Counted from the stretch's first letter, positions 647-15,884 are shown. The stretch: 64,000 nt of DNA from Candidatus Iainarchaeum sp. (GCA_030649735.1 JAUSFL010000036.1:79283-143282), one strand, 5' to 3'. Notes: a model not told the origin generated them from the sequence alone. A program made the numbers and translations.

Positions 647-1315
647 ATGAGTGAAAATTTTGCAAGATTATTGCTTTACACAGACCAGGAAGTTTTTGCC
701 GAAAAAAACTCTGGGAAAATCAGGCTTTTGGAGACAGAATTCAATGACGAGGAAATTCCTGAAGAAGCCCTTGCAAAAAAAGCCCAAGAAGTTTGGGGCG
801 TAAGGCCGGAAAACCTGAAATTATTGTGCGTTCTGCCAAAAGCAAACAGCGAATTTGTCCACTATTATGCCAGCAGGGACTGGAACGGAAGCTTTGAAAA
901 CTGCCAAGTTGAAGAAATAGTCACTGTAGACTTCAAGGAAATGACGGAATTTGCAGAAAAAAATGACATTCTTGCAGCGCAAGTCCTGGAAAAAATCGTT
1001 TTAGGAAAAGACTTCAAAAAGCCTTCAACAATTGCTGCATCGCAAGCGCAAAGGCCAATTAACGACGACTTTGAAATCATCAGGCCAAAACAGCAAAAAA
1101 CCGAAGCGCATGTTCCTGAAAGCACTTCAGACTTTGAAATAATCCGCGCAGTGCCTAAAGGAATGGGCCGCAAGCAGCAGGAATCAACGCGTGAAGGAAT
1201 AGACTTTGAGTTTTTGAGCCGCGGCGGAAAAAAGACAGAGCCCGGCCAAAAATCAAATTTCTTGGAGCCCCCAACCAAAACCAAGAAAGTGCAAAAAAGC
1301 GTTTTCGCCCCGTAA
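647..1315 (+). CDS. Hypothetical acidic protein with short 'DFEII' repeats
   Basis: ORF 569..1315 trimmed to the Met 'MSENFARLL', which follows the HIT stop. Three 'DFEIIR/IDFEFL' repeats near the C-terminus. No recognisable family. Confidence 0.4.
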   Translation: MSENFARLLLYTDQEVFAEKNSGKIRLLETEFNDEEIPEEALAKKAQEVWGVRPENLKLLCVLPKANSEFVHYYASRDWNGSFENCQVEEIVTVDFKEMTEFAEKNDILAAQVLEKIVLGKDFKKPSTIAASQAQRPINDDFEIIRPKQQKTEAHVPESTSDFEIIRAVPKGMGRKQQESTREGIDFEFLSRGGKKTEPGQKSNFLEPPTKTKKVQKSVFAP

Positions 1316-1341
1316 TTTTTAATTTTTATGAAGTGGTTTGG

Positions 1342-2355
1342 ATGATTATAGTTTTAGGCAAGGCCAGCGAAAAGCAAGTCCAGCAAATTCTTGACAAAAT
1401 CAAGGAGAAAGGCTTCAAGCCGCACGTCATTCAAGGAAGCCAAAAAACAGTCATTGCAGTCATTGGAAACAATGCAGCCGCATTCATTGAAGAATTCAGG
1501 CAAATGCCAGGCGTTGAAAGCGTTGCGCAAGTCAGCGCCGCATTCAAGCTCGCGTCCAAAGAAACGCACCACGAAAAAACCAGCATTAAAGTCGGCAGCG
1601 AAGTTTTTGGGAAAGGAAACATTGGAATTATTGCAGGGCCTTGCGGAGTAGAGTCTGAAGAGCAAACTTTAAACACTGCAAAAGCATTGCAGCCTTTAGG
1701 AGTGAAGTTTTTCCGCGCCAGCATTTTCAAGCCGCGCACTTCCCCTTACGACTTTCAAGGAATTGGGCTGAAAGGACTGGAAATTCTTGAAAAAGTCCGT
1801 TCACAGTATGGAATGGCAATAGAAACTGAAGTAATGGACGTTCGGGATGTAAAGCCAGTCAGTGAAGTTGTAGACTGCCTGCGTATTGGCGCGCGCAACA
1901 TGCAAAACTTTGACCTTTTAAAGGAAGTTGGAAGGCAGGAAAAGCCAGTAATCCTAAAGCGCGGCCTTAGCGCGACAATTAAAGAATGGCTAATGGCTGC
2001 AGAATACATCCTAAGCGAAGGCAACAATAAAGTCATTTTGTGCGAGCGCGGCATTCGAACTTTCGAAACTGAAGCCAGAAACACTGCAGACATTTCTGCA
2101 ATTCCTTTAGTGCATTTAATGAGCCACTTGCCAGTAATTTTCGACCCAAACCATTCAACAGGCCGCAAGGACTTGATTCTGCCTTTAAGCAAGGCAGCAA
2201 TTGCGGCAGGAGCCGACGGATTGCTTGTTGAAGTGCACGAGCATCCAGAAAAAGCTCTTTCTGATGCAAAGCAGCAATTCACTCCAAAAGAATTCGCGCA
2301 GTTTTTGCAGGAAATTCGCCCAATAGCAAAGGCAGTTGGAAAAACAATAATTTGA
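1342..2355 (+). CDS. 3-deoxy-7-phosphoheptulonate (DAHP) synthase, class I-beta with N-terminal regulatory (ferredoxin-like) domain
   Basis: KDO8P/DAHP synthase family motifs ('GPCGVESEEQ', 'KFFRASIFKPRTSPYDFQG', 'ERGIRTFE') preceded by a ~70-aa regulatory domain as in Thermotoga/Pyrococcus DAHPS. KDO8P synthase cannot be fully excluded. Confidence 0.65.
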   Translation: MIIVLGKASEKQVQQILDKIKEKGFKPHVIQGSQKTVIAVIGNNAAAFIEEFRQMPGVESVAQVSAAFKLASKETHHEKTSIKVGSEVFGKGNIGIIAGPCGVESEEQTLNTAKALQPLGVKFFRASIFKPRTSPYDFQGIGLKGLEILEKVRSQYGMAIETEVMDVRDVKPVSEVVDCLRIGARNMQNFDLLKEVGRQEKPVILKRGLSATIKEWLMAAEYILSEGNNKVILCERGIRTFETEARNTADISAIPLVHLMSHLPVIFDPNHSTGRKDLILPLSKAAIAAGADGLLVEVHEHPEKALSDAKQQFTPKEFAQFLQEIRPIAKAVGKTII

Positions 2356-2366
2356 AGGAAACTGCA

Positions 2367-3149
2367 ATGCCAAAAAAGCCAGCAAAAATTGCAAAGCCAA
2401 TCCAACAACAGCCTAAAAAACGGTTTTTCAAAAGGGCTTTAGTGACTGGCGGAGTGATTGCTGGATTGACGCTTGGCGGAATTACAGCACTAAAAAATTC
2501 AGCATTGCGGGAAAAGATTGAATTCAAAAGAGCAGAGATTTCCGCAATTCGGGCTGAAAAAAAAGGCCAATTTTCAATCGGCTTTTGGGCAAATTCAAAA
2601 AAGCCAGAACAGCTTTCAAAGACAGTGAATTACGCGCTTGGCTTTTTGCAAAAGGAATTGCCTGCAGAACTGAATGGAAAAAAAGTAAGCGTTTACCTTG
2701 TGAACGAGCTTCCAAAGACAGGATTTACTGAATCTTACGATTTGGCGCTCGCTAAAGCTAAAACTCCAAAAAGATTTGTCGACACTCCGGTTAATTTTGT
2801 TCCTGGAGAAACTCCCGCATTTAATGTCCACTTGAACTTGCAAGAGGTTACAAACTCACTGGGCAAGCTTGCAAGCGTTGAAAGAATCAATGCAAGAAGC
2901 TTTGGGCTAATCTTCAACCAAGTTGCCGGAACCGCAATTATTTTTGAAAAAAACAGGAGCATAATTGACCGAAGATATGCCACAACTTCAGAAATGCGCC
3001 ATGAATTGGAATTAAAGACTTTTGAGAAAGGAATTGGGGCTCTTTCAAGATTCGCGCAAAACAGGCCAAAAAATTCCCGATTCAGGCAAAACCTTGAACT
3101 AGAGGTAAAATTCCAGCAAGGGCTTCTTGAAAGCTGGAAGCGTTTTTAA
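2367..3149 (+). CDS. Hypothetical membrane-anchored protein (basic N-terminus, one TM, extracytoplasmic domain)
   Basis: The stretch 'ALVTGGVIAGLTLGGITAL' is a TM helix. No family recognised. Confidence 0.4.
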   Translation: MPKKPAKIAKPIQQQPKKRFFKRALVTGGVIAGLTLGGITALKNSALREKIEFKRAEISAIRAEKKGQFSIGFWANSKKPEQLSKTVNYALGFLQKELPAELNGKKVSVYLVNELPKTGFTESYDLALAKAKTPKRFVDTPVNFVPGETPAFNVHLNLQEVTNSLGKLASVERINARSFGLIFNQVAGTAIIFEKNRSIIDRRYATTSEMRHELELKTFEKGIGALSRFAQNRPKNSRFRQNLELEVKFQQGLLESWKRF

Positions 3150-3179
3150 CTATTTTCCAAAACAAGTTCTAAAACAAGC

Positions 3180-3250
3180 GCAGCCGTAGTGTAGCGGTAG
3201 CATCCGACCTTCCCAAGGTCGTAGCCCGAGTTCGAATCCCGGCGGCTGCA
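3180..3250 (+). tRNA. tRNA-Gly (anticodon CCC)
   Basis: Cloverleaf with a 7-bp acceptor stem GCAGCCG/CGGCTGC, discriminator A, anticodon loop TTCCCAA and T-loop GTTCGAATC. CCA is not encoded. Confidence 0.8.
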
Positions 3251-3309
3251 TTTGAGAAAATAGCAGTAGATTCTTATACTACCTCCAACTTTTTGTTTGC
3301 TGGTTATAG

Positions 3310-4314
3310 ATGAAAAAGATTGTTTTTGGGCTAATTTTGTTAATTGCTTTGTTTTTGGTTTTTGGATGTACAAGCCCAAACACTATCCCAAATGATAGCG
3401 GCTCGAGCGCAACTCCAAATAATAGCGGCCCGAACGTAACTCCAGATAATGGCGGCTCAAATAATTCTGGCAACGGTCAGACTTCCCTGGAACTTACTTT
3501 TTTGCCGCCTGCTGTGCTTCCAGAAGCAGCGGAAGGCACTGATTATTTATATAGTTTTTGCAAACCGCAGTCTGCAATATCAAGCGATTGGAGTTGTGGG
3601 TATCGTGGAAGTCCAGGAGGGACAACAGATCCTAAGGGGGGAACTTGGGCGTATTCGTTCACACCTCAACCTAGCGAATCCTTGCCAGAGGGACTCTACC
3701 TTGGCTATAATGGATTATTTAAAGGCACGCCAAGGATTCCTGGAACCTATACTTTTGACATATGTGTACGCGAAGATCAACAAGTCAAACTTTGTAAAAC
3801 CACTTCTATAACTGTCGCGCCTTACAAGCAAAAAGTGGATTACAATGTTTCAATAACAATTGACTCGGCGGACATCAGCAAATGCAAAATAAGCACCTAC
3901 TATAACGGTGCTTGGGAAGTTACTGCCCATGGAACAATGACATCTAATGTAAACTTTCGAGAAGGGTATGGAAATACGAACGGAGATAAAGCCCCCGCTG
4001 TTGAATTTTGGATGCTAGCCACTACCGCAAAATATGGGGAGATGGGTTATACTGTAGATGCAGAAGATATGGATTGCGGGGCATGGAAATTAGTCGATAA
4101 AGAAGGACATTTACCGTATTGCGAGAAAGAAGCTGGAGACCCTGACACAGCCATTTGGAAACTCACTTATTCAAGGGGAACTATTGCATCAGAAATTGTA
4201 AGCGTTGGGGCAAGCATAACTTCTTACAATCCAAACTATTATGCAGATTATGTTCCGATTTCGACCGAGTTAACATTATATTCTAAGATTACAAAATCAG
4301 CCGGCACCTGCTAG
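3310..4314 (+). CDS. Secreted lipoprotein with Asn/Ser/Gly-rich linker
   Basis: Signal peptide plus lipobox 'LFLVFGC', a repeated 'PNNSGPNVTPDNGGS' linker, and a Cys-rich globular domain. Confidence 0.55.
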   Translation: MKKIVFGLILLIALFLVFGCTSPNTIPNDSGSSATPNNSGPNVTPDNGGSNNSGNGQTSLELTFLPPAVLPEAAEGTDYLYSFCKPQSAISSDWSCGYRGSPGGTTDPKGGTWAYSFTPQPSESLPEGLYLGYNGLFKGTPRIPGTYTFDICVREDQQVKLCKTTSITVAPYKQKVDYNVSITIDSADISKCKISTYYNGAWEVTAHGTMTSNVNFREGYGNTNGDKAPAVEFWMLATTAKYGEMGYTVDAEDMDCGAWKLVDKEGHLPYCEKEAGDPDTAIWKLTYSRGTIASEIVSVGASITSYNPNYYADYVPISTELTLYSKITKSAGTC

Positions 4315-4318
4315 TGTG

Positions 4319-4357
4319 GATATCTAACCCCAACCCGCTAAAACTCGGCGGCTGCAT
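4319..4357 (+). repeat. Direct repeat carrying a copy of the tRNA-Gly 3' end (…ACTCGGCGGCTGCAT), copy 2
   Basis: GGATATCTAACCCCAACCCGCTAAAACTCGGCGGCTGCAT. Its 11-nt core CGGCGGCTGCA is identical to tRNA positions 3240–3250. It is a near-identical 38-nt match to the copy at 8245–8282. Confidence 0.7.
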
Positions 4358-4549
4358 CAGCAGACGCGACTGCTTACTGCCAACAAACTAATAAAATAAG
4401 CAAAGACCGCAAAAATGGGCTTTAAGCTTGTTTTTGGCTTTTAACTGCATAATTGGCTTATTTTAAGCGTTTAAAGCAGGAGAAAGCTCCTGATTAAATC
4501 AAGAAAAGCTTTAAATATTGCGCAATAGTATTGTAATTACAATTAGTCC

Positions 4550-4599
4550 CCTGCCATTGCTTCGGCAACGGCAGGCTTTCTCTTATTCTCTTTTTTTTT
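4550..4599 (+). terminator. Stable hairpin with UUCG tetraloop followed by T9 run (terminator-like, or 3' end of a small RNA)
   Basis: CCTGCC-A-TTGC-TTCG-GCAA-C-GGCAGG, then CTTTCTCTTATTCTCTTTTTTTTT. It sits in a 320-bp intergenic stretch. Confidence 0.35.
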
Positions 4600-4638
4600 C
4601 CATTCTGCTTAAATATTTCTTCAGCAATAAATGATTCA

Positions 4639-5265
4639 ATGCTAAAGAAAATTGTATTTGTTGATGGGAGCAACTTGTACCATTCAATGAGAGATGACAA
4701 TATTGACCCAAGAATAATCGACTTGGCAAAATTCTTTGAGAAAATTAGCGGGGAAAAAGATCCAACAGTAAGGTATTATACTGCCCCGAGAAAAAGAGAA
4801 GAAGACGCTGAAAAATACGTTCAACAGCAAAGATTCTTTACAGAATTAAAGAACAGAAACCCGAATTTGACAATAATCTTTGGAAGGCTTCAAAAGAACA
4901 AGGAAGCAGACCCAAAAGCAAGAAGCCTGGTTGTGAAAGCATTGGGCTTTTGCGAGAATTGCGCTCAAAAAATACCCAAATTATTCTCAACACTAAGAAT
5001 TGACAAACCGCACCGGGAAAAAGGAGTTGACGTGAAAATTGCCTTGGACTTGGCAATAATGGCAGGAACAAATGAATTTGACTTAGCAATACTCCTTTCA
5101 GGAGACGCTGACTTGGCTCCAGCAGTCCAAATAGCAGTCAAGAACGGAAAGAAAGTAATTAACGGAAGATTCAAAAATTCAAGCTCCAGCGAACTAAGAA
5201 ACATTTGCACTTCCAACTTTCTAATAACCGAAGAAATACTGAAAGATTGCGTTAGAAAACACTAA
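4639..5265 (+). CDS. NYN-domain (LabA/PIN-like) predicted ribonuclease
   Basis: The N-terminus 'IVFVDGSNLYHS' and the segment 'GVDVKIALDLA…FDLAILLSGDADLAPAV…GKKV' match the NYN/DUF88 signature. Confidence 0.7.
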   Translation: MLKKIVFVDGSNLYHSMRDDNIDPRIIDLAKFFEKISGEKDPTVRYYTAPRKREEDAEKYVQQQRFFTELKNRNPNLTIIFGRLQKNKEADPKARSLVVKALGFCENCAQKIPKLFSTLRIDKPHREKGVDVKIALDLAIMAGTNEFDLAILLSGDADLAPAVQIAVKNGKKVINGRFKNSSSSELRNICTSNFLITEEILKDCVRKH

Positions 5266-5275
5266 GGTTGATTTT

Positions 5276-5767
5276 ATGAAAGAAAGAAAAGAAGAATTAG
5301 CAAAGGTAACAAGGCAAGAATTTTTCAAAGAACTCAATAAATTGAAAATCAGAAAAATATTGAAAGTACCTAATGAGTACCTTGTTGGAAAGGAGAGATT
5401 TTTAGGAGACTATTACGTTGGCTGGTTGGCTGATATTTTAGATTACCAAAATGAAGAGAAAATAGTAGATCTTGGAGTGGCTTACCTTTTTGGACGGGCT
5501 TTTGTTATTGCGCAGGACAGAATTCTAGATAATCCTTGCCAGGAAAACAAAGATTATGTAATTGCAGCCCCCATATTACTTAAAGAATTCTTAGAAAGAA
5601 ATCAAAAAATAGTTGGGAATTCTAATTTTGAAAAAGAGGCGGGCCAAGTACTATTTGAATACACGTTAGCAAATCTGAAAGAATCAAAAAGAAAGAAAAG
5701 CCCATTCACAAAGTTCCTCACTGAAGAAATAATAAAACAACATTCAAAGAAACAGAAAGTGATTTGA
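5276..5767 (+). CDS. Hypothetical protein
   Basis: 163-aa ORF packed tightly between the NYN and Nudix genes. No recognisable motif. Confidence 0.4.
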   Translation: MKERKEELAKVTRQEFFKELNKLKIRKILKVPNEYLVGKERFLGDYYVGWLADILDYQNEEKIVDLGVAYLFGRAFVIAQDRILDNPCQENKDYVIAAPILLKEFLERNQKIVGNSNFEKEAGQVLFEYTLANLKESKRKKSPFTKFLTEEIIKQHSKKQKVI

Positions 5768-6192
5768 TGCAAATTGGGAAAGACTTTATTGGAGTGAGTT
5801 GCGGAGCGCAAATAATCAATGAGAAAAAGCAGATTTTACTAATGAAAAGAAGCAAAAAATGCAAAAACAAGCCAGGCTATTGGATGAATGCCGGCGGAAA
5901 AGTCGAATTCTTTGAAAAAATAGAAAACGCGGTAAAAAGAGAGGTAATGGAAGAACTCGGCGTTAAAATCAAAATACTGAAATTGCTTCCAGTGCTTGAC
6001 GACATTAAAACAGCAGAAAAACAGCATTGGATAGCCCCGCAATTCCTTTGCAAAATAACAAAAGGCGCTCCGCGAAACAAGGAGCCGGAAAAATGCGAGG
6101 AAATCAAATGGTTTAACTTGGAGAAAATCCCAAAAAAGACAACAAAAACAACAAAAAACGGAGTAAGAGAAATCAAAAAGATAGTGAAATAA
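5764..6192 (+). CDS. Nudix hydrolase with Lys/Thr-rich C-terminal tail
   Basis: Nudix box 'GGKVEFFEKIENAVKREVMEELGV' (GX5EX7REUXEEXGU). Confidence 0.7.
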   Translation: MMQIGKDFIGVSCGAQIINEKKQILLMKRSKKCKNKPGYWMNAGGKVEFFEKIENAVKREVMEELGVKIKILKLLPVLDDIKTAEKQHWIAPQFLCKITKGAPRNKEPEKCEEIKWFNLEKIPKKTTKTTKNGVREIKKIVK

Positions 6193-6656
6193 TGATTATC
6201 CGAAAAGCCAAGCTTGAAAACGCGAGAGAAATAAGCCTGCTCTTATGCAATACAATAAAAACAGTGAATCGCAAGGACTATACTGCCAGGCAAATTAAAG
6301 CATGGTTAACAAGAAACGATTACAAGTCAATCAAAAATAAAATACTAAGCGGAAGAACCATCTTTGTCGCCATTAACAAATCAAAAATTGTCGGCATAAT
6401 CGCCTTATTTCTTAACGAATGCAAAATTGGCGCACTTTATGTCAAACACACCCTGCACAACCAAGGCATAGGCACAAAACTGTTAAATTATGCTGAAAAA
6501 CTGGCCAAAAGAAAAGGCTTGAAAAAGCTAAAGCTAAATTCAACAAAAACTGCTTTTGAATTCTACAAAAGCAAAGGATACAAAAAAATTAGAATGGCAA
6601 GCCATACAACAAATGGCGTCAAAACTCCAACAATACTAATGGTAAAAAATTTATGA
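6192..6656 (+). CDS. GNAT-family N-acetyltransferase
   Basis: Acetyl-CoA-binding motif 'HNQGIGTKLLNYAEKLAKRKG' on a GNAT-like fold. Confidence 0.7.
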   Translation: MIIRKAKLENAREISLLLCNTIKTVNRKDYTARQIKAWLTRNDYKSIKNKILSGRTIFVAINKSKIVGIIALFLNECKIGALYVKHTLHNQGIGTKLLNYAEKLAKRKGLKKLKLNSTKTAFEFYKSKGYKKIRMASHTTNGVKTPTILMVKNL

Positions 6657-6762
6657 ACCAACAAAATAAAGGAGTTGAAATTATGAAAAAAACCTTAGAA
6701 CTGGATCGAATCCAATCTTCCGAAAACCGCAAGCCTCAAACTGCCCACCCAGCAAGCAGAGG

Positions 6763-6776
6763 TCCCGGCGGCTGCA
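6763..6776 (+). repeat. Copy 3 of tRNA-Gly 3'-end motif (TCCCGGCGGCTGCA)
   Basis: 13 of 13 nt match tRNA positions 3238–3250. Upstream there is also 'GGATCGAATCC', which resembles the T-loop, but no acceptor-stem partner exists, so it is not an intact tRNA. Confidence 0.6.
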
Positions 6777-6819
6777 AAAATATTTAAAGCCAGCAAAACT
6801 TGATTCTATTGATGATTAA

Positions 6820-7602
6820 ATGAAAAAAGTATTTGCTTTAATTTTGATAATTATCGGCTTGGCTGCTGCTATTTTTCTTGGTAGTTCGCTGTTTGATAAA
6901 CTTAGTTATTTTTTGATTGCAGTCTTCGGACTATTTTTCATGCTTAAACCAGGAAAACAAGTGCAGATTAACAAAGAAACTGTCACTCCAGAATCAGCCA
7001 ATATTTTATTTAAAGAGCATGATTTTACAGAGAATGAAAAAGAATCATATCGAGAAGCATTGCTTCAGGTCAAGGACATTACAGAAAACCCTTCAAAATG
7101 GGCGGCCTTTATTATTTTTTCAGGAGTACTCTCAATTCCTGTTTTTTTAAGCAAAACCATGTCAACAATCCCTGCATTGCTTGTTTTAAGCATTGCATTT
7201 GTACTCGCTCTTTTCATTAAAGAGCTTAATATTTTTGCTATAAGAGGCAATAAGTTTTACCAGCTTATCGGGGGTTTAGCTTTTGTCTACGTCTTTACAG
7301 GGGCGGGGTTTTTAATTAGCGTTGGCGAGTCTGGCAAAACTTTCATTCCGATAAATTGGATTCAAATTGGATATTATTACTTGTATTTTTTATCATTCCT
7401 CACTTGTATTGCATTAGCAACCATTGGGCTTGTTTACTTCAAGAAAACAAAAAGAAACCTTTACGAAGCATTAGTGTATCGAGAAAACACAACCCTAACC
7501 AGCAGCATCTTATTTGCAAGAGGATATTTGATAGCTATCAACATTTTTTCAATTTTTATGATAGCTTACAATGTAGTGCTTGCAATTTTGTTCATCCAAT
7601 AA
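6820..7602 (+). CDS. Polytopic membrane protein, function unknown
   Basis: There are 6–7 hydrophobic helices. No family recognised. Confidence 0.5.
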   Translation: MKKVFALILIIIGLAAAIFLGSSLFDKLSYFLIAVFGLFFMLKPGKQVQINKETVTPESANILFKEHDFTENEKESYREALLQVKDITENPSKWAAFIIFSGVLSIPVFLSKTMSTIPALLVLSIAFVLALFIKELNIFAIRGNKFYQLIGGLAFVYVFTGAGFLISVGESGKTFIPINWIQIGYYYLYFLSFLTCIALATIGLVYFKKTKRNLYEALVYRENTTLTSSILFARGYLIAINIFSIFMIAYNVVLAILFIQ

Positions 7603-7648
7603 AAAAGAGAATATTTAAATATCTGCAGATAATATTAGGAACTGATAA

Positions 7649-7834
7649 TTGATGACTCTAGAATTTAATAACCCAATATTCCCTGCTTTGGGACTTTTAT
7701 TAATCGTCATTTCAATAATTGACATTTTTATCTCAAGCTCAATGCTTTCATTAGTTGGGGATGCCCTTGGAATTATTGCTGGTTTAGCGCTTATAATAAG
7801 ATACTTTTTAACAAAAAAAGGTGCGAAAAAATGA
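7649..7834 (+). CDS. Small membrane protein (two TM helices)
   Basis: 61-aa hydrophobic ORF whose stop is coupled to the next start. Confidence 0.3.
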   Translation: MMTLEFNNPIFPALGLLLIVISIIDIFISSSMLSLVGDALGIIAGLALIIRYFLTKKGAKK

Positions 7835-8223
7835 AATTGAGTCTTTTGATTATTTTTGGAATAATGTGTCTCGTAACTCTTAGTGGTTGCGCACAAAACC
7901 CCAGTGATACTCCATTAATTGTAAGACAAAACTTTGACAACATTGACTTAAGTAATTTCCAAAACTGCAAAGGCGTTTTTTTAGTACAAGACAGTTATGA
8001 TATCGGACTTGCAGTCTTTGTTGCGGGAGATGTTGCAAAGGGAGAAATAGCCGTTGGGGATAAAACTAATATAGATGGAAATACAATAGTAGTAAAAACC
8101 ATTGAAGGCAATAAGAAACAATGGGATAAAGCCATTAAAACATACCGTGTTGGGCTAAACTTTGAAAGACAAATTACAAAAGAGTCATATAAGCCAAACG
8201 ACCTTATCTGCTTCAACCCTTGA
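7831..8223 (+). CDS. Small secreted lipoprotein
   Basis: Signal peptide plus lipobox 'LVTLSGC'. Confidence 0.5.
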   Translation: MKLSLLIIFGIMCLVTLSGCAQNPSDTPLIVRQNFDNIDLSNFQNCKGVFLVQDSYDIGLAVFVAGDVAKGEIAVGDKTNIDGNTIVVKTIEGNKKQWDKAIKTYRVGLNFERQITKESYKPNDLICFNP

Positions 8224-8244
8224 TTACATTTAAGGAATCTGACA

Positions 8245-8282
8245 GATACTAACCCCAACCTGCTAACACTCGGCGGCTGCAT
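8245..8282 (+). repeat. Copy 4 of the 38-nt repeat ending in tRNA-Gly 3'-end motif
   Basis: AGATACTAACCCCAACCTGCTAACACTCGGCGGCTGCAT. It differs from copy 2 (4319–4357) at 2–3 positions. Confidence 0.7.
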
Positions 8283-8561
8283 TTTGCAGTAAGAATTTAA
8301 ACAACTTGATCCTTCAAATTAAGTGCTGGTTTTGAATGGGTGCTGAAGAAAAAATGAGCAGGGAAGCTTTTGACCGCTTCAACAACTTAAAAATGGCTTA
8401 CGGTTCAATGATTGTTGACTTCACTTTTAACGCGTTAAAGATCAGGATGCCAATGGCGAGCGATGACGAGCTGGTGGTTGCAGTCGCTAAACGCTTGAGG
8501 AAAAAAAAGAATGAAAAATTGCTGGAAAAGCAGAATTCGCTGTTGTAAAATCAAGAGAGAA

Positions 8562-9563
8562 TCATTTCTTTTTTTTCAGGAAATCCAGCGCTATTTCATT
8601 TATTGAATGCTTTGCAATAGTGAATTTTTCATAGTCTTTAAGGTAAAAGTAAACGCCCAGTTGGAAAAAGTCCTTGCCGACTTTTTCAATGTAGATTTTA
8701 AAAGATGATTTTTTTTCCAATCCTTCAATCCTGCCAGCGCCGGCCTTTTTTTCAAGCAAGGAAACCAGCTTTTTCACGCCAGCCCATGCCGGAACATCAA
8801 TCAAGACTATTGCATTAGAATCGTGGTATGTTCTGGAAAGGTTTGTAATGCGCTGTTTTGCAAACTCGCTGTTGGAAATTATTATTTTGTTTCCATTCAA
8901 GTCTTCAAGCATTGCGCTCCGCAATCCGATTTTTTCAAGCCTTGCAATTTCATCATTGTTGAGCTTTAAGAAATCCCCGTAATAGAACGGTCTGTCAAGC
9001 TGTAATGCCAGGCCTGCAAACAAATTTGCCAAGGTTTCCTGGGAAGCAAGCCCTAAAACCAGGACAGCAACGCTTGTTACTGCCAAGACTCCTGTCAAGT
9101 CAACGCCAATCACTGCCAGGCCTATTGAAATTCCCAATAAGGGGATTACAACACGGGAAATTTTCCTTACAAAAGGCAATAATGAAATGTCCATTTTGAA
9201 TTTTGAAAGCTCATTCCCTTCAACGTAATACCACCGCAATAAGGCCCCAAAAATTTCAGAAAGCATGAAAGAGGCAAGAATGATTATTATTGAAAGCAAG
9301 TATTTTGAAATCGCCTGGCTTATGGCCTGCAAGTTTGCAAAAAGCCCTGAAAGAAAAAACAATGCCAATAGAATGACTATTGTTTGAAGCGGCTTTTCCA
9401 TTGCCTCAATTAGGAAGTCGTCAAGCTTGCTTTTTGTTTCCCTAGTCAGCCTTTTGAAAACTAGCAAAATTGCCTTGTGCAGGAATTTTCCCAGAAAAAA
9501 GCCCAAAAAAGCAATGACTAGGATTTCAAATCCAAAAACCGCAAAATCTACCAGCAAAACCAT
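8562..9563 (-). CDS. Small-conductance mechanosensitive channel (MscS family)
   Basis: TM helices followed by 'GLASQETLANLFAGLALQLDRPFYYGDFLKL', the MscS pore and beta-domain signature. Confidence 0.75.
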   Translation of the reverse strand: MVLLVDFAVFGFEILVIAFLGFFLGKFLHKAILLVFKRLTRETKSKLDDFLIEAMEKPLQTIVILLALFFLSGLFANLQAISQAISKYLLSIIIILASFMLSEIFGALLRWYYVEGNELSKFKMDISLLPFVRKISRVVIPLLGISIGLAVIGVDLTGVLAVTSVAVLVLGLASQETLANLFAGLALQLDRPFYYGDFLKLNNDEIARLEKIGLRSAMLEDLNGNKIIISNSEFAKQRITNLSRTYHDSNAIVLIDVPAWAGVKKLVSLLEKKAGAGRIEGLEKKSSFKIYIEKVGKDFFQLGVYFYLKDYEKFTIAKHSINEIALDFLKKKK

Positions 9564-9624
9564 ACCATGTAACTTAATGTCAAAAGTTTAAAAAACACAT
9601 TATAAAAACAAAATCCTTGACTAA

Positions 9625-11967
9625 TTGATAATGCAGGCAAAAAAGCCAGAATTGATTCTTCCAGCCGGAAATTTCGAGAATTTGAAGGCCGCGGTCTTGA
9701 ACGGCGCAGACTCTGTTTACGGCGGGGCTAAAAAGTTTAATGCGCGCATTCCTGCAGCAAACTTTGCAGAAAACGAGCTGAATGACGGAATAGACTACTG
9801 TCACTTGCATGGAAAGCGCTTTTACCTAACGCTCAACACGCTAATTAAAGACTCGGAACTGGAAGAGGCGATTGGAATTGCAAAAAACGCTTTCGAACTG
9901 GGCGTTGATGCAATAATCTGCCAGGATTTGGGATTAATCAATGCTTTAAGAGAGCTTTTGCCAGAATTGGAAATTCACGCAAGCACGCAAACAACCTGCC
10001 ATAACAGCGCTGGCGCAAAGTTTTTGGAAAACTTGGGGGTTAAGAAAATTGTTCTGGCAAGAGAGCTTTCCCTGCAGGAAATCAAGGAAATCAAAAAAAG
10101 CACAAGTGCAGGAATTGAATGCTTCATTCACGGGGCATTGTGCTTTTCCTACTCGGGACAGTGCCTGTTCAGCAGTTTTGCATTCAATAAGTCTGGCAAT
10201 CGCGGGCGATGCCTGCAGCCTTGCAGGCTAAAGTTCGAGCTTTACTCAAAAGAAGGCATTGAGAAAGGATTTGTGCTTTCAATGAAAGACCTGATGACAA
10301 TTTACGGCATTAAAGAGCTCATTAACGCTGGAATTGATTCTTTCAAGGTTGAGGGAAGATTGAAGGGCATTGCTTACGTTGCGTCAGTCGCGCGCGCCTA
10401 TCGGAAAGCAATAGACTCTTGCTTTGGCAATTCGGAAAGGCCTTCTGAAGAGGATGTAAAACTAATGAAGATTGCATTCTTGCGCGAGGCGACTAAAGGC
10501 TATTTTTTCGAGCAGGAAACAATGACTTTTCCTGAAACTCCAATGAGAAAGGGAGTTCTTGCCGCAAAAGTCATTGGGTTCAAGGGAAGGGCAATCAGGC
10601 TGAAATTGTTTGAAAGCATTTACAAGTGGGACAGGCTCACTGCGTTAAAGGATGATTCTTTGGAAGAATTCAGCGCTGCAAAAATTTTCAGGGATGGAAA
10701 GGAAGTGCCAAAGGCAATCAAGGGAAACGAGATTGTGATTGAAACCGGCGAAAAGCCATTCTTGGAAATTGGGCAGGAATTGTTTTTTACCTCGCACAAG
10801 CTTTTGAAAGACCTGGAGGAAAAGGCATTGTTTGGCGGGAAAAAAGTTTTTTACTCATTGAAAGTTTTTGCAAAAGTGGGGGAAAACTTGAAGGCGATTG
10901 CGGAGTTTGCGGGCAAAAAATCCGAAGTCGAGTTTGACTTCAGGCCAGAGGCCGCAAAAACTTCGGAATTTTCTGAAAAAATGCTCAAAGAACGCCTGTT
11001 CAAAGAGGATGATTTTTTCAAGCCAGTGAAGTTTGAGGCAAAAATTGATGGCAAAATCTTTATTCCAGTAAGCAAGCTCAAGGAATTCCAAAAGGCAATA
11101 ATGGATTCAATGCGCGAAAAATTCTTTGAAGAATTCAGGAAAACTGCCGGAAGCGATTTTGAAGGCAGGATGAAAAGAATGCTTAATTTCAAGGCTCAAA
11201 AAATCGGGAAAGAAAAACGGGAAATCGCGGTTTTTTGCGACAGTGTTGAACAGGCAGGGCTTGCAAAAGAAAACGCGGATTTTATTGCATTCTATGATTG
11301 CGTGGGACTGGAAAAAATAGAGAAATTTGCAAAGGAAAATCCGGCAATAAAAATTTTTGTGAAATCTTCAAACATTCAGTCAGACAAGGAATTGCAAGAG
11401 TTCGAAAAAAACTTTCTGAAAGCAAAAACCCCAATAATTTGCTCTAACCTCGGGGTTTTGCAAAAGGCAATTGAGGCAAAATCAAGGTTTTGGGCTGACA
11501 GGGAATTGAATTGCTTTAATTCATTAAGCGCAAGGCTTTTGGCAGGCCTTGGGGCTGAAAGAATAATTCCTTCTTCCGAATGCTCTTTGCAGCAGCTGGA
11601 AATGATTTCAGAAAAGCAAAAGATCATGCCGCTTGTTTTCCAGTATCCTTTGCTAATGACTTCAAAGGCTTTTGCAAAGAACAGGAAGCCAGGCCGGCTT
11701 GATTTGAAGGACAGGAAAGGATTCGCTTACAGGGCGGTTGTTGAACAAAACGGATTGTTCAGGATTTACAATCCAGTGCCTTTAAGCATGATTTTTGAAG
11801 TTGAAAAATTTGGAGAGTTTTCAGCAATTGGGCTGGATTTCAGGGAAGCCGGCGTGAAAGAAGCCAAGGAAAGCCTTGAGTTCTTGCGTGAAAAGCTTGC
11901 TGGAAAAAGCCCCAGGAAAGAATTCGCGAAATTCACGCGCGGGCATTATTTCAACGAGCTTGAATGA
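9625..11967 (+). CDS. Peptidase U32-family protein (collagenase-like/PrtC family; long C-terminal extension)
   Basis: Conserved U32 N-terminal half: 'ELILPAGNFENLKAA…GADSVYGG', 'HGKRFYLTLNTL' and 'CFSYSGQCLFSSF…SGNRGRCLQPCR'. Confidence 0.75.
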   Translation: MIMQAKKPELILPAGNFENLKAAVLNGADSVYGGAKKFNARIPAANFAENELNDGIDYCHLHGKRFYLTLNTLIKDSELEEAIGIAKNAFELGVDAIICQDLGLINALRELLPELEIHASTQTTCHNSAGAKFLENLGVKKIVLARELSLQEIKEIKKSTSAGIECFIHGALCFSYSGQCLFSSFAFNKSGNRGRCLQPCRLKFELYSKEGIEKGFVLSMKDLMTIYGIKELINAGIDSFKVEGRLKGIAYVASVARAYRKAIDSCFGNSERPSEEDVKLMKIAFLREATKGYFFEQETMTFPETPMRKGVLAAKVIGFKGRAIRLKLFESIYKWDRLTALKDDSLEEFSAAKIFRDGKEVPKAIKGNEIVIETGEKPFLEIGQELFFTSHKLLKDLEEKALFGGKKVFYSLKVFAKVGENLKAIAEFAGKKSEVEFDFRPEAAKTSEFSEKMLKERLFKEDDFFKPVKFEAKIDGKIFIPVSKLKEFQKAIMDSMREKFFEEFRKTAGSDFEGRMKRMLNFKAQKIGKEKREIAVFCDSVEQAGLAKENADFIAFYDCVGLEKIEKFAKENPAIKIFVKSSNIQSDKELQEFEKNFLKAKTPIICSNLGVLQKAIEAKSRFWADRELNCFNSLSARLLAGLGAERIIPSSECSLQQLEMISEKQKIMPLVFQYPLLMTSKAFAKNRKPGRLDLKDRKGFAYRAVVEQNGLFRIYNPVPLSMIFEVEKFGEFSAIGLDFREAGVKEAKESLEFLREKLAGKSPRKEFAKFTRGHYFNELE

Positions 11968-12008: not shown

Positions 12009-13769
12009 ATGAATAGGAAGCTGGCGCTGGTTTTTGTTTTTGCAATTTTTCTTTCAGGCTTTGCTTTCGCAAAGTCTTACTATTTACTTAATGTTTCAGT
12101 CGATTACAAGTTCAATGAAGACGCAAGCATTGACGTGACTGAAGACTTGGTTTTCCAATTCAGCGGGCCTTATAGTTTTGCATATCGGGAAATTACCTTG
12201 ACTGGAAGCCAAACTATTGAAGGCTTTCAAGTTTTTGAGAAAACCCAGAATGGGCTTGTTGAATTGACTCCGGAAATTCAGAGTTATCCTTTCAAGGCAA
12301 CCTGGAAATACCGGGCAGTCAATGAAAGCAGGGAATTTGTGCTAAAATACAGGCTGAAAAATATTGTAAAGTCTTACTCTGACTCTTTCGAGTTTTACTG
12401 GAAGATTTGGGGGGACTATTGGGATGCCCCAATCACGCAATTCAATGCAGTGCTTGAGTTTCCAAGGCCACTGGCTGAAGGAAGCAAGGTCTGGGCCCAT
12501 CCAGCACTAAACGGAAGTTGGAATATTGACGGAAAGACAGTCACGATTTCCGCCAGCAATATTCCCGCAAGGACTTTTGTCGAAGCTCGCGTGCTTTTCA
12601 ACAAGGACGTATTGAATGATGTTTTCACTGAAAAAATTTCAGGGCCCGGATTGCAGAAAGTCGAAAATGACGAAAGCACTAATGCTTTGATTTACGGCTC
12701 GACAGGCTTGCTTTGGGCCTGGCCGGTGATTGTGCTTTTGGTTTTGGCTTTCTTTTTTTGGGGGTTTTACAAAAAATACGGAATGGAACCGAAAGTGCAG
12801 GAAACAAAATACCAGCGGGAAATCCCTTTTGCGGACAAGCCATACTTGGTGGATTACTTGATGCATTTGAGAATCACTCCAAATGGAATGAGTGCGACAT
12901 TAATGGACCTAGTGAGAAGAAAGCACATCAAAATTGAAAAAGTCAAAAAGAAGGGAATTCTTGCAGGAATTTTTGGGGGGGAAGACTACAAGCTGACTAA
13001 ATTGCCAAGCGCTGACCTTTTGACAGCGCCGGAAAACTTTTTGATTAATTCAATTTTCAAAAAAAGAGTGGGAAAAGGAATTTTCAATTCAGGCCACCGC
13101 AAATCAGTCGTGGAAATCACTCTTTCGGAAATTGCAGAAACCAATAAAACTGAAACAACTTCACTTTTTGAGGACTGGAAGCAAGTGGCTGAGCAAAACA
13201 TTGAAACAAACAAGACAAAAAACAATTATTTTGACTTTACGGGAAACAAAAAGTTCACGGTTGTTTTAGGTATCTTAATGCTGACAAATTTTATAATATT
13301 ATGGGCTGGAGTCAAAATTATTGCTTTAGCCGCTATTTCGATTGCTGGTTTGGCAGTTTGCGTTGCATTTATTCTCATAGTGGCTATTTTCCCGCGCGCT
13401 TTGCCTTCAATGACACAGCTCGGAGCAGAGCATTACAGCAAATGGAATGCGCTGAAAAGGTTTTTTGACGATTTCAATTACATGAAGGAAAAGACAATTC
13501 CAGACATTGTGCTTTGGGAGCAATACTTGGTTTTCTCGACTGTTTTTGGAAATTCTGAAAAAGTGCTCAAGGAATTCAGGACGCCATTCTCTGCAGAAAT
13601 GCAAAAGCACAATGCTGGATTTTACGCTTTCTCAAGCCCTGCATTTTACAGCGCCTTCAACTCCAGCTTTTCCCAAGCAGGGTTTTCTTCAGCCTCAGCT
13701 TCTGGCTCCGGCGGGTTTTCCGGCGGCGGAGGCGGTGGTGGAGGAGGCGGGGGCGGCGGCGCAGGATAA
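12009..13769 (+). CDS. DUF2207-family membrane protein (signal peptide, extracellular domain, TM region, C-terminal poly-Gly tail)
   Basis: Architecture and the C-terminal 'SGSGGFSGGGGGGGGGGGGGAG' tail are typical of DUF2207. Confidence 0.55.
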   Translation: MNRKLALVFVFAIFLSGFAFAKSYYLLNVSVDYKFNEDASIDVTEDLVFQFSGPYSFAYREITLTGSQTIEGFQVFEKTQNGLVELTPEIQSYPFKATWKYRAVNESREFVLKYRLKNIVKSYSDSFEFYWKIWGDYWDAPITQFNAVLEFPRPLAEGSKVWAHPALNGSWNIDGKTVTISASNIPARTFVEARVLFNKDVLNDVFTEKISGPGLQKVENDESTNALIYGSTGLLWAWPVIVLLVLAFFFWGFYKKYGMEPKVQETKYQREIPFADKPYLVDYLMHLRITPNGMSATLMDLVRRKHIKIEKVKKKGILAGIFGGEDYKLTKLPSADLLTAPENFLINSIFKKRVGKGIFNSGHRKSVVEITLSEIAETNKTETTSLFEDWKQVAEQNIETNKTKNNYFDFTGNKKFTVVLGILMLTNFIILWAGVKIIALAAISIAGLAVCVAFILIVAIFPRALPSMTQLGAEHYSKWNALKRFFDDFNYMKEKTIPDIVLWEQYLVFSTVFGNSEKVLKEFRTPFSAEMQKHNAGFYAFSSPAFYSAFNSSFSQAGFSSASASGSGGFSGGGGGGGGGGGGGAG

Positions 13770-13809
13770 AGATTTTAAACACGCAATTCCTGAATTGAAT
13801 GGTGCCTTA

Positions 13810-14406
13810 ATGATTGGAATTCTTGGGAACGAACTGCAGCTGATAATCCTATTTTTCGTGATTTTTGACCCGCTCGCAAGCCTTGTTGTTTTTTTCACTG
13901 CAACCAAAAGCATGCCTGTTGAAGAAAAGAAAAAGATAGCCGCATTGGCAATCACTGTTGCTTCATGCATTTCGGCAGTGTTCTTGATTGCGGGGGAAAG
14001 CGTGCTTTACTTGTTCAACACAAACATCAACGAGTTCAGGATTGCTGGCGGAATAATTCTCGCAATTTTGGGAGTCAAAATGGCCTTGGGCCAGTCATTG
14101 ACAGACCCTGATTCAATCAAGGACAAGCCGTCAAGGGCGATTGCCGCAATCATTGGAACTCCCTTGATAACAGGGCCTGCCGCAATCACTTCAATAATAA
14201 TTTCAACGCACGATTACGGCTTTTTGCCGACCGCAATTGCAGTGATTACAGTCATGCTTTTGACTGCCGCAATGTTCTATAATGTCTCAAATCACGCAAG
14301 CATTGCAGAAAAAAACCAGACATTAATCAAAGTGCTTTCAACAATACTCGGGCTGATAACCTTGGCTTGGGGCGTCAACTTCATCAGGGTCGGGCTGGGT
14401 TTCTAA
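13810..14406 (+). CDS. MarC-family (UPF0056) integral membrane protein
   Basis: Six-TM protein with 'GNELQLIILFFVIFDPLASL' and 'IIGTPLITGPAAITS'. ORF 13507.. trimmed to the first Met after the DUF2207 stop. Confidence 0.65.
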   Translation: MIGILGNELQLIILFFVIFDPLASLVVFFTATKSMPVEEKKKIAALAITVASCISAVFLIAGESVLYLFNTNINEFRIAGGIILAILGVKMALGQSLTDPDSIKDKPSRAIAAIIGTPLITGPAAITSIIISTHDYGFLPTAIAVITVMLLTAAMFYNVSNHASIAEKNQTLIKVLSTILGLITLAWGVNFIRVGLGF

Positions 14407-14408
14407 AA

Positions 14409-15356
14409 ATGGCCGAATACGTTCTCTGGGCGATTCCCTCGCTTACCTTGATTCTTTGCTCAATCCTGTTCTTTCACTTTTACAAGAAATACGGCGTAGA
14501 GCTTTATTCAGGCCGAGAAATAGTCCAAGTCAAGGAAATTCCATTCAAGGACAAGCCGTACGTTGTGGACTACTTGCTTAATTTGAAGGCCACAACCAAT
14601 GGAATGGTCGCAACACTGATGGACTTGTTCTTAAGAAAGCACATCAAGATAGAGCGGGTTGAAAGCGAAAGCGTTCTCGGAATGATTTTCAAGGGATATG
14701 ACTACAAGCTTTCAAGGCTTGAAAGCAATGGCCCATTGGCCCCAAGCGAGCAGGCCCTTTTGGACCTGATTTTTATTAGGAAAGTCAGGACAGGCTGGTT
14801 TTCAACAAGCAAAATCCCATCCAATGACGTGACTATTTCTGGAATAATATTAAGGCAGGAGCAAGAGGAAACGCCATTAATAGTCGAATGGGCAAGGACT
14901 GCGGAAGCTGAAGTGAGAACAAACCATGTAGTCAATGACTTTTACAATTTCACGGGAGCAAGAAAATTCAAAATGTCGCTTATTGCATTAGAAGCCGCAT
15001 TAATTGCGCTCTTGCTTGCGGGAATTTTCGCCAAGATTCCAGAACTGGCAATAGGCGCTGTTTATTCAATCCCAATAGTGTTCTTATTCCTGCTGATTAC
15101 TGCATTGGCACCCAGGATTCTTTCAAAAATGACTTACTTGGGGGCCGAGCACTACATTAAATGGCTGGGGTACAAGAAATTCCTCACTGACTTCCATTAT
15201 CTGGAAAAGAAAATCCCTGAAGACATCACGCTTTGGGAAGAGCACTTGGTCTATGCCACTGTCTGCGGCAATGCCGAGACTGTCTTGAGGGAATTCAGCT
15301 ATGCGTTTGAAGCGCGCAAGGAGCCAAAAAACCACGCGGTAGTATTCCACCAATAA
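14409..15356 (+). CDS. Truncated paralogue of the DUF2207 membrane/C-terminal module (lacks extracellular domain and poly-Gly tail)
   Basis: 'EIPFKDKPYVVDYLLNLKATTNGMVATLMDLFLRKHIKIERV' is clearly homologous to residues ~265–310 of 12009..13769 ('EIPFADKPYLVDYLMHLRITPNGMSATLMDLVRRKHIKIEKV'), and the homology continues through the TM region. Confidence 0.55.
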   Translation: MAEYVLWAIPSLTLILCSILFFHFYKKYGVELYSGREIVQVKEIPFKDKPYVVDYLLNLKATTNGMVATLMDLFLRKHIKIERVESESVLGMIFKGYDYKLSRLESNGPLAPSEQALLDLIFIRKVRTGWFSTSKIPSNDVTISGIILRQEQEETPLIVEWARTAEAEVRTNHVVNDFYNFTGARKFKMSLIALEAALIALLLAGIFAKIPELAIGAVYSIPIVFLFLLITALAPRILSKMTYLGAEHYIKWLGYKKFLTDFHYLEKKIPEDITLWEEHLVYATVCGNAETVLREFSYAFEARKEPKNHAVVFHQ

Positions 15357-15398: not shown

Positions 15399-15884
15399 AT
15401 GGTTCGATTGGAAAGCGAGCTTTGGAAGTTTTCAGAGCTTTGCGAAACCCACAGCATTGAAAAAACCAATGATTTATTGAGCGAAGGCTGGGTTTTGATT
15501 GAAGCCCACGCGCGTGATGGAAAAAAGACATTCCTTTTAGGGAAAGAGAAAATCCATCAGGCCGCAAAACTGGATTTGGACAAGGAAATTGAGGCAGTGC
15601 TTGAAAAGCACGGGAAAAAATACGAGAACTTGGATTTTAACGAAAGCAAAGAAGCAATGGAAGTCAACAGTTCAACAATCAAGTCGTTAATCAAAGGCCC
15701 TGTTTTTTTAGGGCTGGGAATTTACATTTTCTTCCAGTCAGCCCAGAAAAGCCTGCTTCTTTTGGGAAGCGAATCAACTTTGCTGCAGAATGTGCTGTTT
15801 TTTGCGGGCGTGGTTTTAACTCTTGTTGGTTTAATGAATGTTTTAGGATTCATTGCAAAAAAAGAAGGCGGCAAAAATGAATAA
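15399..15884 (+). CDS. Hypothetical protein with soluble N-domain and two C-terminal TM helices
   Basis: ORF with two C-terminal hydrophobic helices. No family recognised. Confidence 0.4.
   Translation: MVRLESELWKFSELCETHSIEKTNDLLSEGWVLIEAHARDGKKTFLLGKEKIHQAAKLDLDKEIEAVLEKHGKKYENLDFNESKEAMEVNSSTIKSLIKGPVFLGLGIYIFFQSAQKSLLLLGSESTLLQNVLFFAGVVLTLVGLMNVLGFIAKKEGGKNE

Follow-up and report, generated by a model that had tools for sequence, protein, structure and literature searches.

Why does the 3' end of a transfer RNA gene recur, always in one orientation, behind a series of neighbouring genes in an archaeal genome? The question is posed by a stretch of 64,000 nucleotides from Candidatus Iainarchaeum sp. 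(GCA_030649735.1 JAUSFL010000036.1:79283-143282), to which we refer as the window and in which all positions are counted from the first nucleotide. It contains a single tRNA gene according to both ARAGORN and Rfam, an intact tRNA-Gly(CCC) on the + strand at 3180..3250 (RF00005, 58 bits), and downstream of this lie three segments, here called cassettes A, B and C, each bounded by short copies of the tRNA end. An earlier note on this DNA had put the segments at 1.1, 2.4 and 1.5 kb, and they measure 1095, 2409 and 1494 bp. The evidence supports a reading of the repeats as scars of att type, left by serial site-specific integration at the 3' end of the tRNA, and we consider it probable, if well short of certain, that the array was built by tandem accretion of integrase-less cassettes at the tRNA-Gly(CCC) 3' end, using a recombinase supplied in trans.

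Copies of the tRNA-Gly(CCC) 3' end

The last 11 nt of the tRNA gene, CGGCGGCTGCA, are found in four exact copies in the window (at 3240, 4346, 6766 and 8271), all on the + strand and spanning 5.1 kb, just as the earlier note had described. Dinucleotide-preserving shuffles of the 64-kb window give a chance expectation of 0.02 copies on average, and no shuffle reaches four. When the tRNA is compared with the window by blastn-short, the top three non-self matches are copies of 14, 11 and 11 nt, and the tRNA-derived copies all terminate at the discriminator base, tRNA position 71. Core copy 1, the attL-like member, forms the end of the tRNA itself (3240-3250). Copy 2 (4346..4356) is preceded by the arm GATATCTAACCCCAACCCGCTAAAACTCGG and followed by TCAGCAGACGCGACTGC, copy 3 (6763..6776) extends to 14 nt of the tRNA end (TCCCGGCGGCTGCA), and copy 4 (8271..8281), the most distal and attR-like, has the arm GATACTAACCCCAACCTGCTAACACTCGG on its 5' side. 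A T follows directly 3' of copies 1, 2 and 4. That the tRNA remains intact fits the prediction of conservative integration.

Similarity between copies 2 and 4 extends well beyond the core. Positions 4324-4357 and 8249-8282, which include the two cores, form a 34-nt repeat with 94% identity, and this reaches GATA(T)C at 4319 and 8245 to give the near-identical 38-nt repeat of the earlier note once a one-base gap is allowed. The arm motif (CTAACCCCAACCYGCTAAMACTCGG) occurs only twice in the window, even at three mismatches, and copy 3 has an unrelated upstream arm. A second element proposed for copy 3, a T-loop-like sequence GGATCGAATCC nearby, has to be abandoned, as it has only an 8-mer in common with the tRNA and is equalled by about a dozen other chance matches of 8-9 nt. 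The repeats were correctly placed just 3' of gene stops, and start 31, 109 and 47 nt beyond the stop codons at copies 2, 3 and 4, respectively. By direct reading, the copy 2 junction contains an imperfect palindrome, GCGGCTGC-ATCA-GCAGACGC, with 8-nt arms that match at 7/8 positions across a 4-nt spacer, and copies 1, 3 and 4 have no palindrome of this type. A 16-nt near-palindrome, AGCAGACGCGACTGCT, lies at 4359-4374 at the start of the cassette B leader, and is also present in the related contig L081 described below.

Use of the 38-nt motif as a general gene-end signal, which would have told against the earlier note, is not observed; within the 64 kb the motif is found only near the tRNA, and a 33-nt arm-plus-core query has no match in three public collections (IMG/VR, the GTDB species representatives and the JGI metagenomes). 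A 23-mer from the copy 2 junction likewise has no match in IMG/VR, and blastn of the junction returns nothing from INPHARED phages or PLSDB plasmids. A 19-mer from the tRNA end does match IMG/VR contig L084, a high-GC bacterial phage, where the match falls within coding DNA and was dismissed as chance.

We also note a peculiarity of the tRNA itself. Its T-stem (window 3227-3244) contains an A52:C62 mismatch (CCGAG...CCCGG), flagged as a non-standard pair in the Rfam alignment and repeated in L081 at 2153-2170. In the L081 copy, and in copies 2 and 4 away from the tRNA, the sequence is CTCGG, and this T would restore perfect pairing of the stem. Either the displaced copies keep the ancestral tRNA end and the current end came with an incoming element, or the base is part of the cassette arm.

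The first cassette in a close relative, and the cargo of the array

For the 260-aa protein encoded just 5' of the tRNA, a set of 5.8 billion proteins contains only two homologues apart from itself. A homologue with 78% identity is encoded on L081, an ENA contig of 3.2 kb, and an identical sequence is present on a JGI contig (L083); a homologue with 71% identity (L082) has no tRNA at the equivalent position. L081 and L083 are collinear with window positions 1093-3251 at 84.4% DNA identity, the tRNA-Gly of L081 is identical to that in the window, and the homology ends at the last base of the tRNA. Beyond it L081 has a different cassette of 0.6 kb, with an unrelated 165-aa lipobox gene, and the end of this cassette reads ...TTAAGGAATCAAGTGGATTCCTAAC...CTCGGCGGCTGCATCAGCAGACGCGAACTGC, of which the final 31 nt form a junction resembling copy 2 (window 4344-4373 and L081 2757-2787; 97% identity over 31 nt). 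The next gene in L081 has no counterpart in the window. The two DNAs are thus unlike on both sides of the conserved junction, and the breakpoints coincide with core copies. Conservation of the whole block in synteny, which would have been hard to reconcile with integration, is not seen; L081 replaces the first cassette between the tRNA end and the copy 2-like junction.

The junction arms are shared in a manner that does not follow the genes beside them. The arm 5' of the core in L081 has TTAAGGAATC...GAT.CTAAC in common with the copy 4 arm, and arms of this family follow a lipoprotein gene in all three instances (cassettes A and C, and L081), these genes being otherwise unrelated in sequence. 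The arm 3' of copy 2 is common to the window and L081 despite the different genes that come next. In the leader of the post-junction gene in L081 (2790-2880), GGTGGTGATAACT occurs twice in direct orientation at a distance of 44 nt, and this may be an operator.

Cassettes B and C are compositionally foreign. The GC content is 41.9% for the whole window and 42.3% +/- 1.6-2.1 outside the cassettes, and falls to 36.1% in cassette B (4357..6765) and 33.5% in cassette C (6777..8270), below every 2.4-kb and every 1.5-kb interval, respectively, elsewhere in the 64 kb; composition is back to normal distal to copy 4. Cassette A (3251..4345) has an average GC content of 42.4% and a low GC at third codon positions (GC3), 0.355 relative to 0.453 +/- 0.048 for core genes, and GC3 is 0.42 or less in all seven cassette genes measured. 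Lysine makes up 11-20% of residues in cassette B, 6.5% and 8.4% in the two genes measured in cassette C, and 5.7% in cassette A. The earlier impression that the segments are A+T- and Lys-rich is thus right for B, right for C as to A+T but not Lys, and wrong for A, in which Lys is low and the composition differs in GC3 only.

Nine genes are present in the region, all co-oriented with the tRNA, and the non-coding share is approximately 12% (coding density ~88%). By direct reading, each cassette has a TATA-like box ~25-45 nt 5' of its first ATG. The gene content agrees with that given in the earlier note, with domains assigned by Pfam. Cassette A consists of a 59-nt leader with the TATA-like TTATAC, one gene (3310-4314, +) whose 334-aa lipobox product contains a He_PIG Ig-like domain, and a 31-nt tail in which the conserved arm occupies 4319-4345. 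Cassette C opens with a TATA-like leader, followed by + strand genes for a 260-aa membrane protein (6820-7602), a 61-aa membrane protein (7649-7834) and a 130-aa lipobox protein (7831-8223), and closes with a tail containing the conserved arm at 8245-8270.

Cassette B has a non-coding leader of 282 nt (4357-4638), four + strand genes and a 109-nt tail. The genes encode NYN (4639-5265), Nudix (5764-6192) and GNAT (6192-6656) proteins, and a 163-aa protein with no family match (5276-5767). Two PADLOC candidate-defence models have matches among these proteins, HEC-09 in NYN (E = 5.6e-20) and PDC-S07 in Nudix (E = 9e-17). The cassette may be a module of defence or toxin type, although shared domains alone could also explain these matches. 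A G+C hairpin, CCTGCCATTGC-TTCG-GCAACGGCAGG, followed by a T-run, is located in the leader at ~4551-4577, and a structured RNA in the leader was considered and rejected, with a fold z of -1.4. A 44-aa open reading frame (ORF; 6653-6787) overlaps the GNAT stop codon (ATGA), crosses core copy 3 and stops 11 nt beyond it; it lacks a family match and is unlikely to be a real gene.

The cassette proteins have no relatives among viral contigs. The cassette A lipoprotein has two homologues, with 55-56% identity (L085 and L086), and the arm and core of the window are absent beside both. In each case the homology is confined to the interval from ~45 nt 5' of the ATG through the stop codon. Because homology to L085 spans only from TATA box to stop, cassette A is a gene unit with ~12 nt added on its left and the 31-nt arm on its right. 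L085 (CABMEU010000010.1) is from an uncultured archaeon, and carries its homologue between direct repeats of 54-68 nt that differ from those in the window. Three copies of these repeats, with the core GCCAKTGATGAAGTAAAT, are present at 9254-11112, beginning in the 3' part of a gene similar to Asp/Glu racemases. Between them are two units of one gene each, one with the lipoprotein homologue and the other with a 149-aa protein. L085 thus has a second cassette ladder of the same logic, anchored at a protein gene rather than a tRNA. No integrase was found on this 12-kb contig, and an 18-mer from its repeat matches only phage coding regions in IMG/VR.

In L086 (JGI Ga0315289_10000204, 9561-11639) the cassette A homologue lies between perfect 18-nt inverted repeats, AGCTTTGTGTAAGTAATG / CATTACTTACACAAAGCT, and adjoins a 77-aa DDE_Tnp_1 transposase fragment; it looks like a passenger in an element derived from an insertion sequence. 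The contexts in L085 and L086 show that the cassette A gene is mobile in other archaea. Elsewhere in L086 (13548-13871), the 3' 12-mer of a tRNA-Gly(GCC), CGGTGGTCGCAC, is found again 110 nt downstream, which leaves an 'empty' interval of 98 nt, and right after this repeat is what by eye resembles an intron-containing tRNA-Gly(UCC) gene (GCAACCGTGATGTAGTGGTAGCAT...GGGTTCGAATCCCGGCGGTTGCA), not called by ARAGORN. The cassette C lipoprotein is rare, with 10 matches among 1.8 billion representatives, and its only homologue (43% identity) is found in arrays of small paralogous pilin-like genes (L087-L092) with no link to a tRNA. These pilin-like genes (e.g. L087 2000-7200) share an N-terminal KGISPLIAAVLLI and are separated by spacers of 200-330 nt rich in hairpin repeats (GAAACTTTTT...AAAAAGTTTC), and the content of the arrays varies between samples (L092 compared with L087).

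How the array may have formed

Att-like copies flank each cassette at both ends, and no integration or transfer genes lie inside. A Pfam search with 70 ORFs covering the window (E<=1e-3) gave no integrase, recombinase, transposase or excisionase domain, and NCBIfam searches with the ORFs lacking a Pfam match gave none either, so that the absence of such genes from the 64 kb, reported earlier by inspection, is borne out. ORFs reading across the cores are 44-95 aa long and have no family matches, and neither IntI nor attI adjoins the array among the left or right flank genes. An integrase split across the att site, as in SSV-type elements, was excluded because circularisation of cassette B would, on direct reading, stop the ORF crossing copy 3 after 16 codons of the left end.

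The most probable scenario is that the three cassettes (1.1, 2.4 and 1.5 kb) were stacked by conservative site-specific recombination in which the last 11-14 nt of the tRNA served as the core. An incoming circular cassette would carry an attP-like site in which the core is set between an upstream arm and a short downstream one, and recombination at the tRNA end or at an existing core copy would rebuild the tRNA and leave the insert with an extra core copy at its distal end. The enzyme would be provided from elsewhere in the genome or by a co-resident virus or plasmid, and is most likely a tyrosine recombinase. Cassettes of this type, with a cargo of surface and accessory genes, would resemble CIMEs, Xer-dependent modules or integron cassettes (see below) more than proviruses that are self-sufficient. 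The array can then be represented as tRNA-O-P'A [A] PA-O-P'B [B] PB-O-P'C [C] PC-O-flank, and the sharing of arms makes sense because PA, PC and the arm in L081 form one family, and P'B is the arm that follows the L081 junction.

The footprint of serial integration that the earlier note recognised is thus well founded, given clustered and co-oriented copies that end at the last base of the tRNA, the foreign character of cassettes B and C, and the replacement in L081. Among the three origins it had offered, old insertions that lost their integrase, mobilisation in trans and a new capture mechanism, the evidence leans towards mobilisation in trans, because the cassettes are tightly packed without gene debris and the arms are conserved beside unrelated cargo. 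In cassette A there is no space for a decayed integrase, since only ~12 nt and 31 nt of its DNA are specific to the cassette. We infer that the recombination was site-specific and that the cassettes move as minimal units, as well as what the recombinase is and where it is encoded.

Several observations weigh against accretion by a recombinase acting in trans. Neither a circular form, an empty site nor an excision junction was seen among the assembled contigs, and a recombinase was not identified within the 64-kb window, which is part of a 160-kb contig from an incomplete metagenome-assembled genome. The 11-nt core is short for an att site, and the arms at copy 3 and at the tRNA-proximal junctions are not conserved, such that a single attP consensus cannot be written. 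The junctions are without significant secondary structure, with z values of -0.15 to -0.91 relative to shuffles when both DNA strands are folded. Cassette A, which is nearest the tRNA and nominally the newest, nonetheless has the most native composition. The comparison also draws on a single relative and 3-kb contigs, and it is only at the first position that segments are seen to be present or absent independently.

The strongest competitor to mobilisation in trans, though in our view clearly the less likely of the two, is that the cassettes are decayed remnants of three integrase-bearing viruses or plasmids that integrated in series at the tRNA-Gly gene and later lost the integrase and backbone by deletion. 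Archaeal examples have been described both of tandem integration and of elements that lost their integrase once integrated (PMC8371274, PMC6563490), and decay would account for the lack of an integrase in the window and for the 282-nt non-coding leader retained in cassette B; the 98-nt interval after the tRNA-Gly(GCC) in L086 shows that the DNA between att copies is sometimes lost almost entirely in these archaea. The deletions would, however, have had to spare intact promoter-bearing genes and both att sites four times over (in A, B, C and L081), no pseudogene debris is visible at a coding density of ~88%, and decay does not readily explain arms that are 94% conserved between cassettes with unrelated cargo, nor the ends of cassette A, only ~12 nt and 31 nt from a gene unit conserved in other archaea. 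General recombination is a much weaker contender, and we think it very improbable that the tRNA end and its short copies are mere patches of identity used for homologous or microhomology-mediated exchange. The identical tRNA and the 31-nt junction shared with L081 could have flanked replacement of the first cassette, and module swapping between tandem elements through homologous recombination has been proposed in archaea (PMC8371274), but neither the origin of the tRNA-end copies nor the abrupt end of identity at the last tRNA base in every copy is explained in this way, and 11 nt is very short for homologous recombination.

Least credible of all, and in our judgement nearly excluded, is a role for the repeats as functional RNA or transcription signals at gene ends, whether terminators, processing sites or tRNA-like 3' tags. 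The copies do lie 31-109 nt after stop codons, a T follows copies 1, 2 and 4, and a weak terminator-like score is obtained for copy 4. Against this, the motif occurs only by the tRNA and nowhere else in 64 kb with approximately 60 genes, the cargo varies from one relative to another and has a foreign composition, and folding is no better than in shuffles (z -0.2 to -0.9), for which reason an attC-like or terminator hairpin was also rejected. Rfam finds nothing tRNA-like at copies 2-4 even at E<=10, and the same search together with ARAGORN recognises only the one tRNA; with no T-arm 5' of copies 2-4, split tRNAs and pseudo-tRNAs were discarded as well. A retroelement primer-binding site was rejected on direct reading, the copies being in the same sense as the tRNA and without CCA.

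Known systems, flanking genes and other features of the window

Tandem site-specific accretion at a tRNA 3' end is a known kind of arrangement, and the array belongs to it; what is unusual is that the cassettes, in a DPANN archaeon, are minimal, lack an integrase, bear promoters and share arms. Within archaeal tRNA genes the preferred att sublocation is the extreme 3' end, and att sites can be as short as the acceptor end (reviewed for archaeal tyrosine recombinases in PMC8371274); tandem integration and integrated elements lacking an integrase are both on record (PMC8371274, PMC6563490). Arrays of integrated mobile genetic elements (iMGEs) at archaeal tRNA genes, of the SNJ2, pT26-2 and SSV types, are similar in that direct repeats of the tRNA 3' end bound the inserts, the tRNA is rebuilt and the site is re-used (PMC8371274, PMC6563490). 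Such iMGEs are usually 5-50 kb, with an integrase that is intact or split across att, whereas the units described here are 1.1-2.4 kb (0.6 kb in L081), carry 1-4 cargo genes and have no integrase or fragment of one. Of the properties that define tRNA-targeted iMGEs, the array shows the tRNA-end repeats, the composition and variable presence (in one relative, at the first position), and lacks an integrase of its own.

Closer in some respects are the cis-mobilizable elements (CIMEs) of Streptococcus and other bacteria, for which the concept of accretion was developed (PMC5704250). CIMEs also have attL and attR sites, no integration or transfer genes and a tandem arrangement where their target gene ends (3'), and can be mobilised by the integrase of a related element (PMC5704250). 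They are recognisable decay products of integrative and conjugative or integrative and mobilizable elements, with a known cognate conjugative element, whereas the present units are much smaller, have a DPANN host, and have no parent element or recombinase identified. Xer-dependent modules, such as integrative mobile elements exploiting Xer (IMEX) and the pdif modules of Acinetobacter, are likewise small, recombinase-less and bounded by short sites, and are shuffled by a host tyrosine recombinase (PMC6449649, PMC13141974). The pdif sites are plasmid-borne and alternate in orientation, each an imperfect dif-like palindrome of 28 bp, whereas those in the window are chromosomal direct repeats of a tRNA end with a partial palindrome at the copy 2 junction only; a dif-like site has two inverted half-sites of ~11 nt with a 6-nt spacer. 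Integrons share with the array a co-oriented set of small cassettes, a site 3' of each gene, related sites on unrelated cargo and a single point of insertion. They differ in having an adjacent IntI, a folded attC with R and L boxes, and an attI where the present array has a tRNA end, and the present cassettes appear to carry TATA-like promoters of their own.

A bolder interpretation, which we regard as speculative and rather doubtful, is that the locus is a tRNA-anchored, integron-like capture system of DPANN archaea, in which promoter-bearing cassettes of 0.6-2.4 kb are inserted, excised and shuffled at the tRNA by a recombinase encoded elsewhere. The site would be ~50 nt, made up of the conserved arm, the 11-nt tRNA-Gly 3' core and a short downstream arm; the cargo would be mostly surface lipoproteins and small accessory modules, and the L085 ladder, with other repeats but the same cargo gene, would represent a sister system anchored at the 3' end of a protein gene. 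Given the very small genomes of DPANN archaea and their reliance on host cells, their surface proteins would be expected to change fast. To our knowledge, little is known of the routes by which these archaea acquire genes. If the integron-like interpretation is correct, a fixed site at which recombinase-less lipoprotein and membrane-protein cassettes are swapped would be an economical route for turnover of surface genes, amounting to an integron-like locus dedicated to diversification of the cell surface in symbionts with reduced genomes, and the logic of CIMEs, pdif modules and integrons would extend to archaea. If the cassettes are instead decayed proviruses, the locus would be one more tRNA-linked genomic island, still of use as a marker of strain variation and a caution for the annotation of tRNA fragments.

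The host is a DPANN archaeon, and the gene content marks the window as archaeal, with archaeal ribosomal proteins L12, P0 and L1, TBP and AglB, and DP2-type neighbours in relatives. By Pfam, the left flank has the order HIT, unknown gene, DAHP synthase, unknown gene, tRNA. A search for related loci using the DAHP synthase found relatives with at most 54% identity, none with a tRNA nearby. To the right, the presumed chromosomal flank (8283..9563; GC ~0.39-0.41) contains a 70-aa ORF on the + strand (8336-8548) and an MscS channel gene on the - strand (8562-9563; Pfam MS_channel), and a U32 peptidase gene is also present in the right flank. The nearest non-self MscS homologue has 50% identity and is too distant for comparison of an empty site or of the right boundary.

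Among the other features of the window, we note a pair of adjacent DUF2207 membrane-protein paralogues and two very large surface proteins, encoded at 12009-15356, 15853-19686 and 41333-45229. The surface proteins are 1277 and 1298 aa long, with Laminin_G, He_PIG, Big_9 and cadherin-like domains, and the He_PIG domain is one that they have in common with the cassette A lipoprotein.

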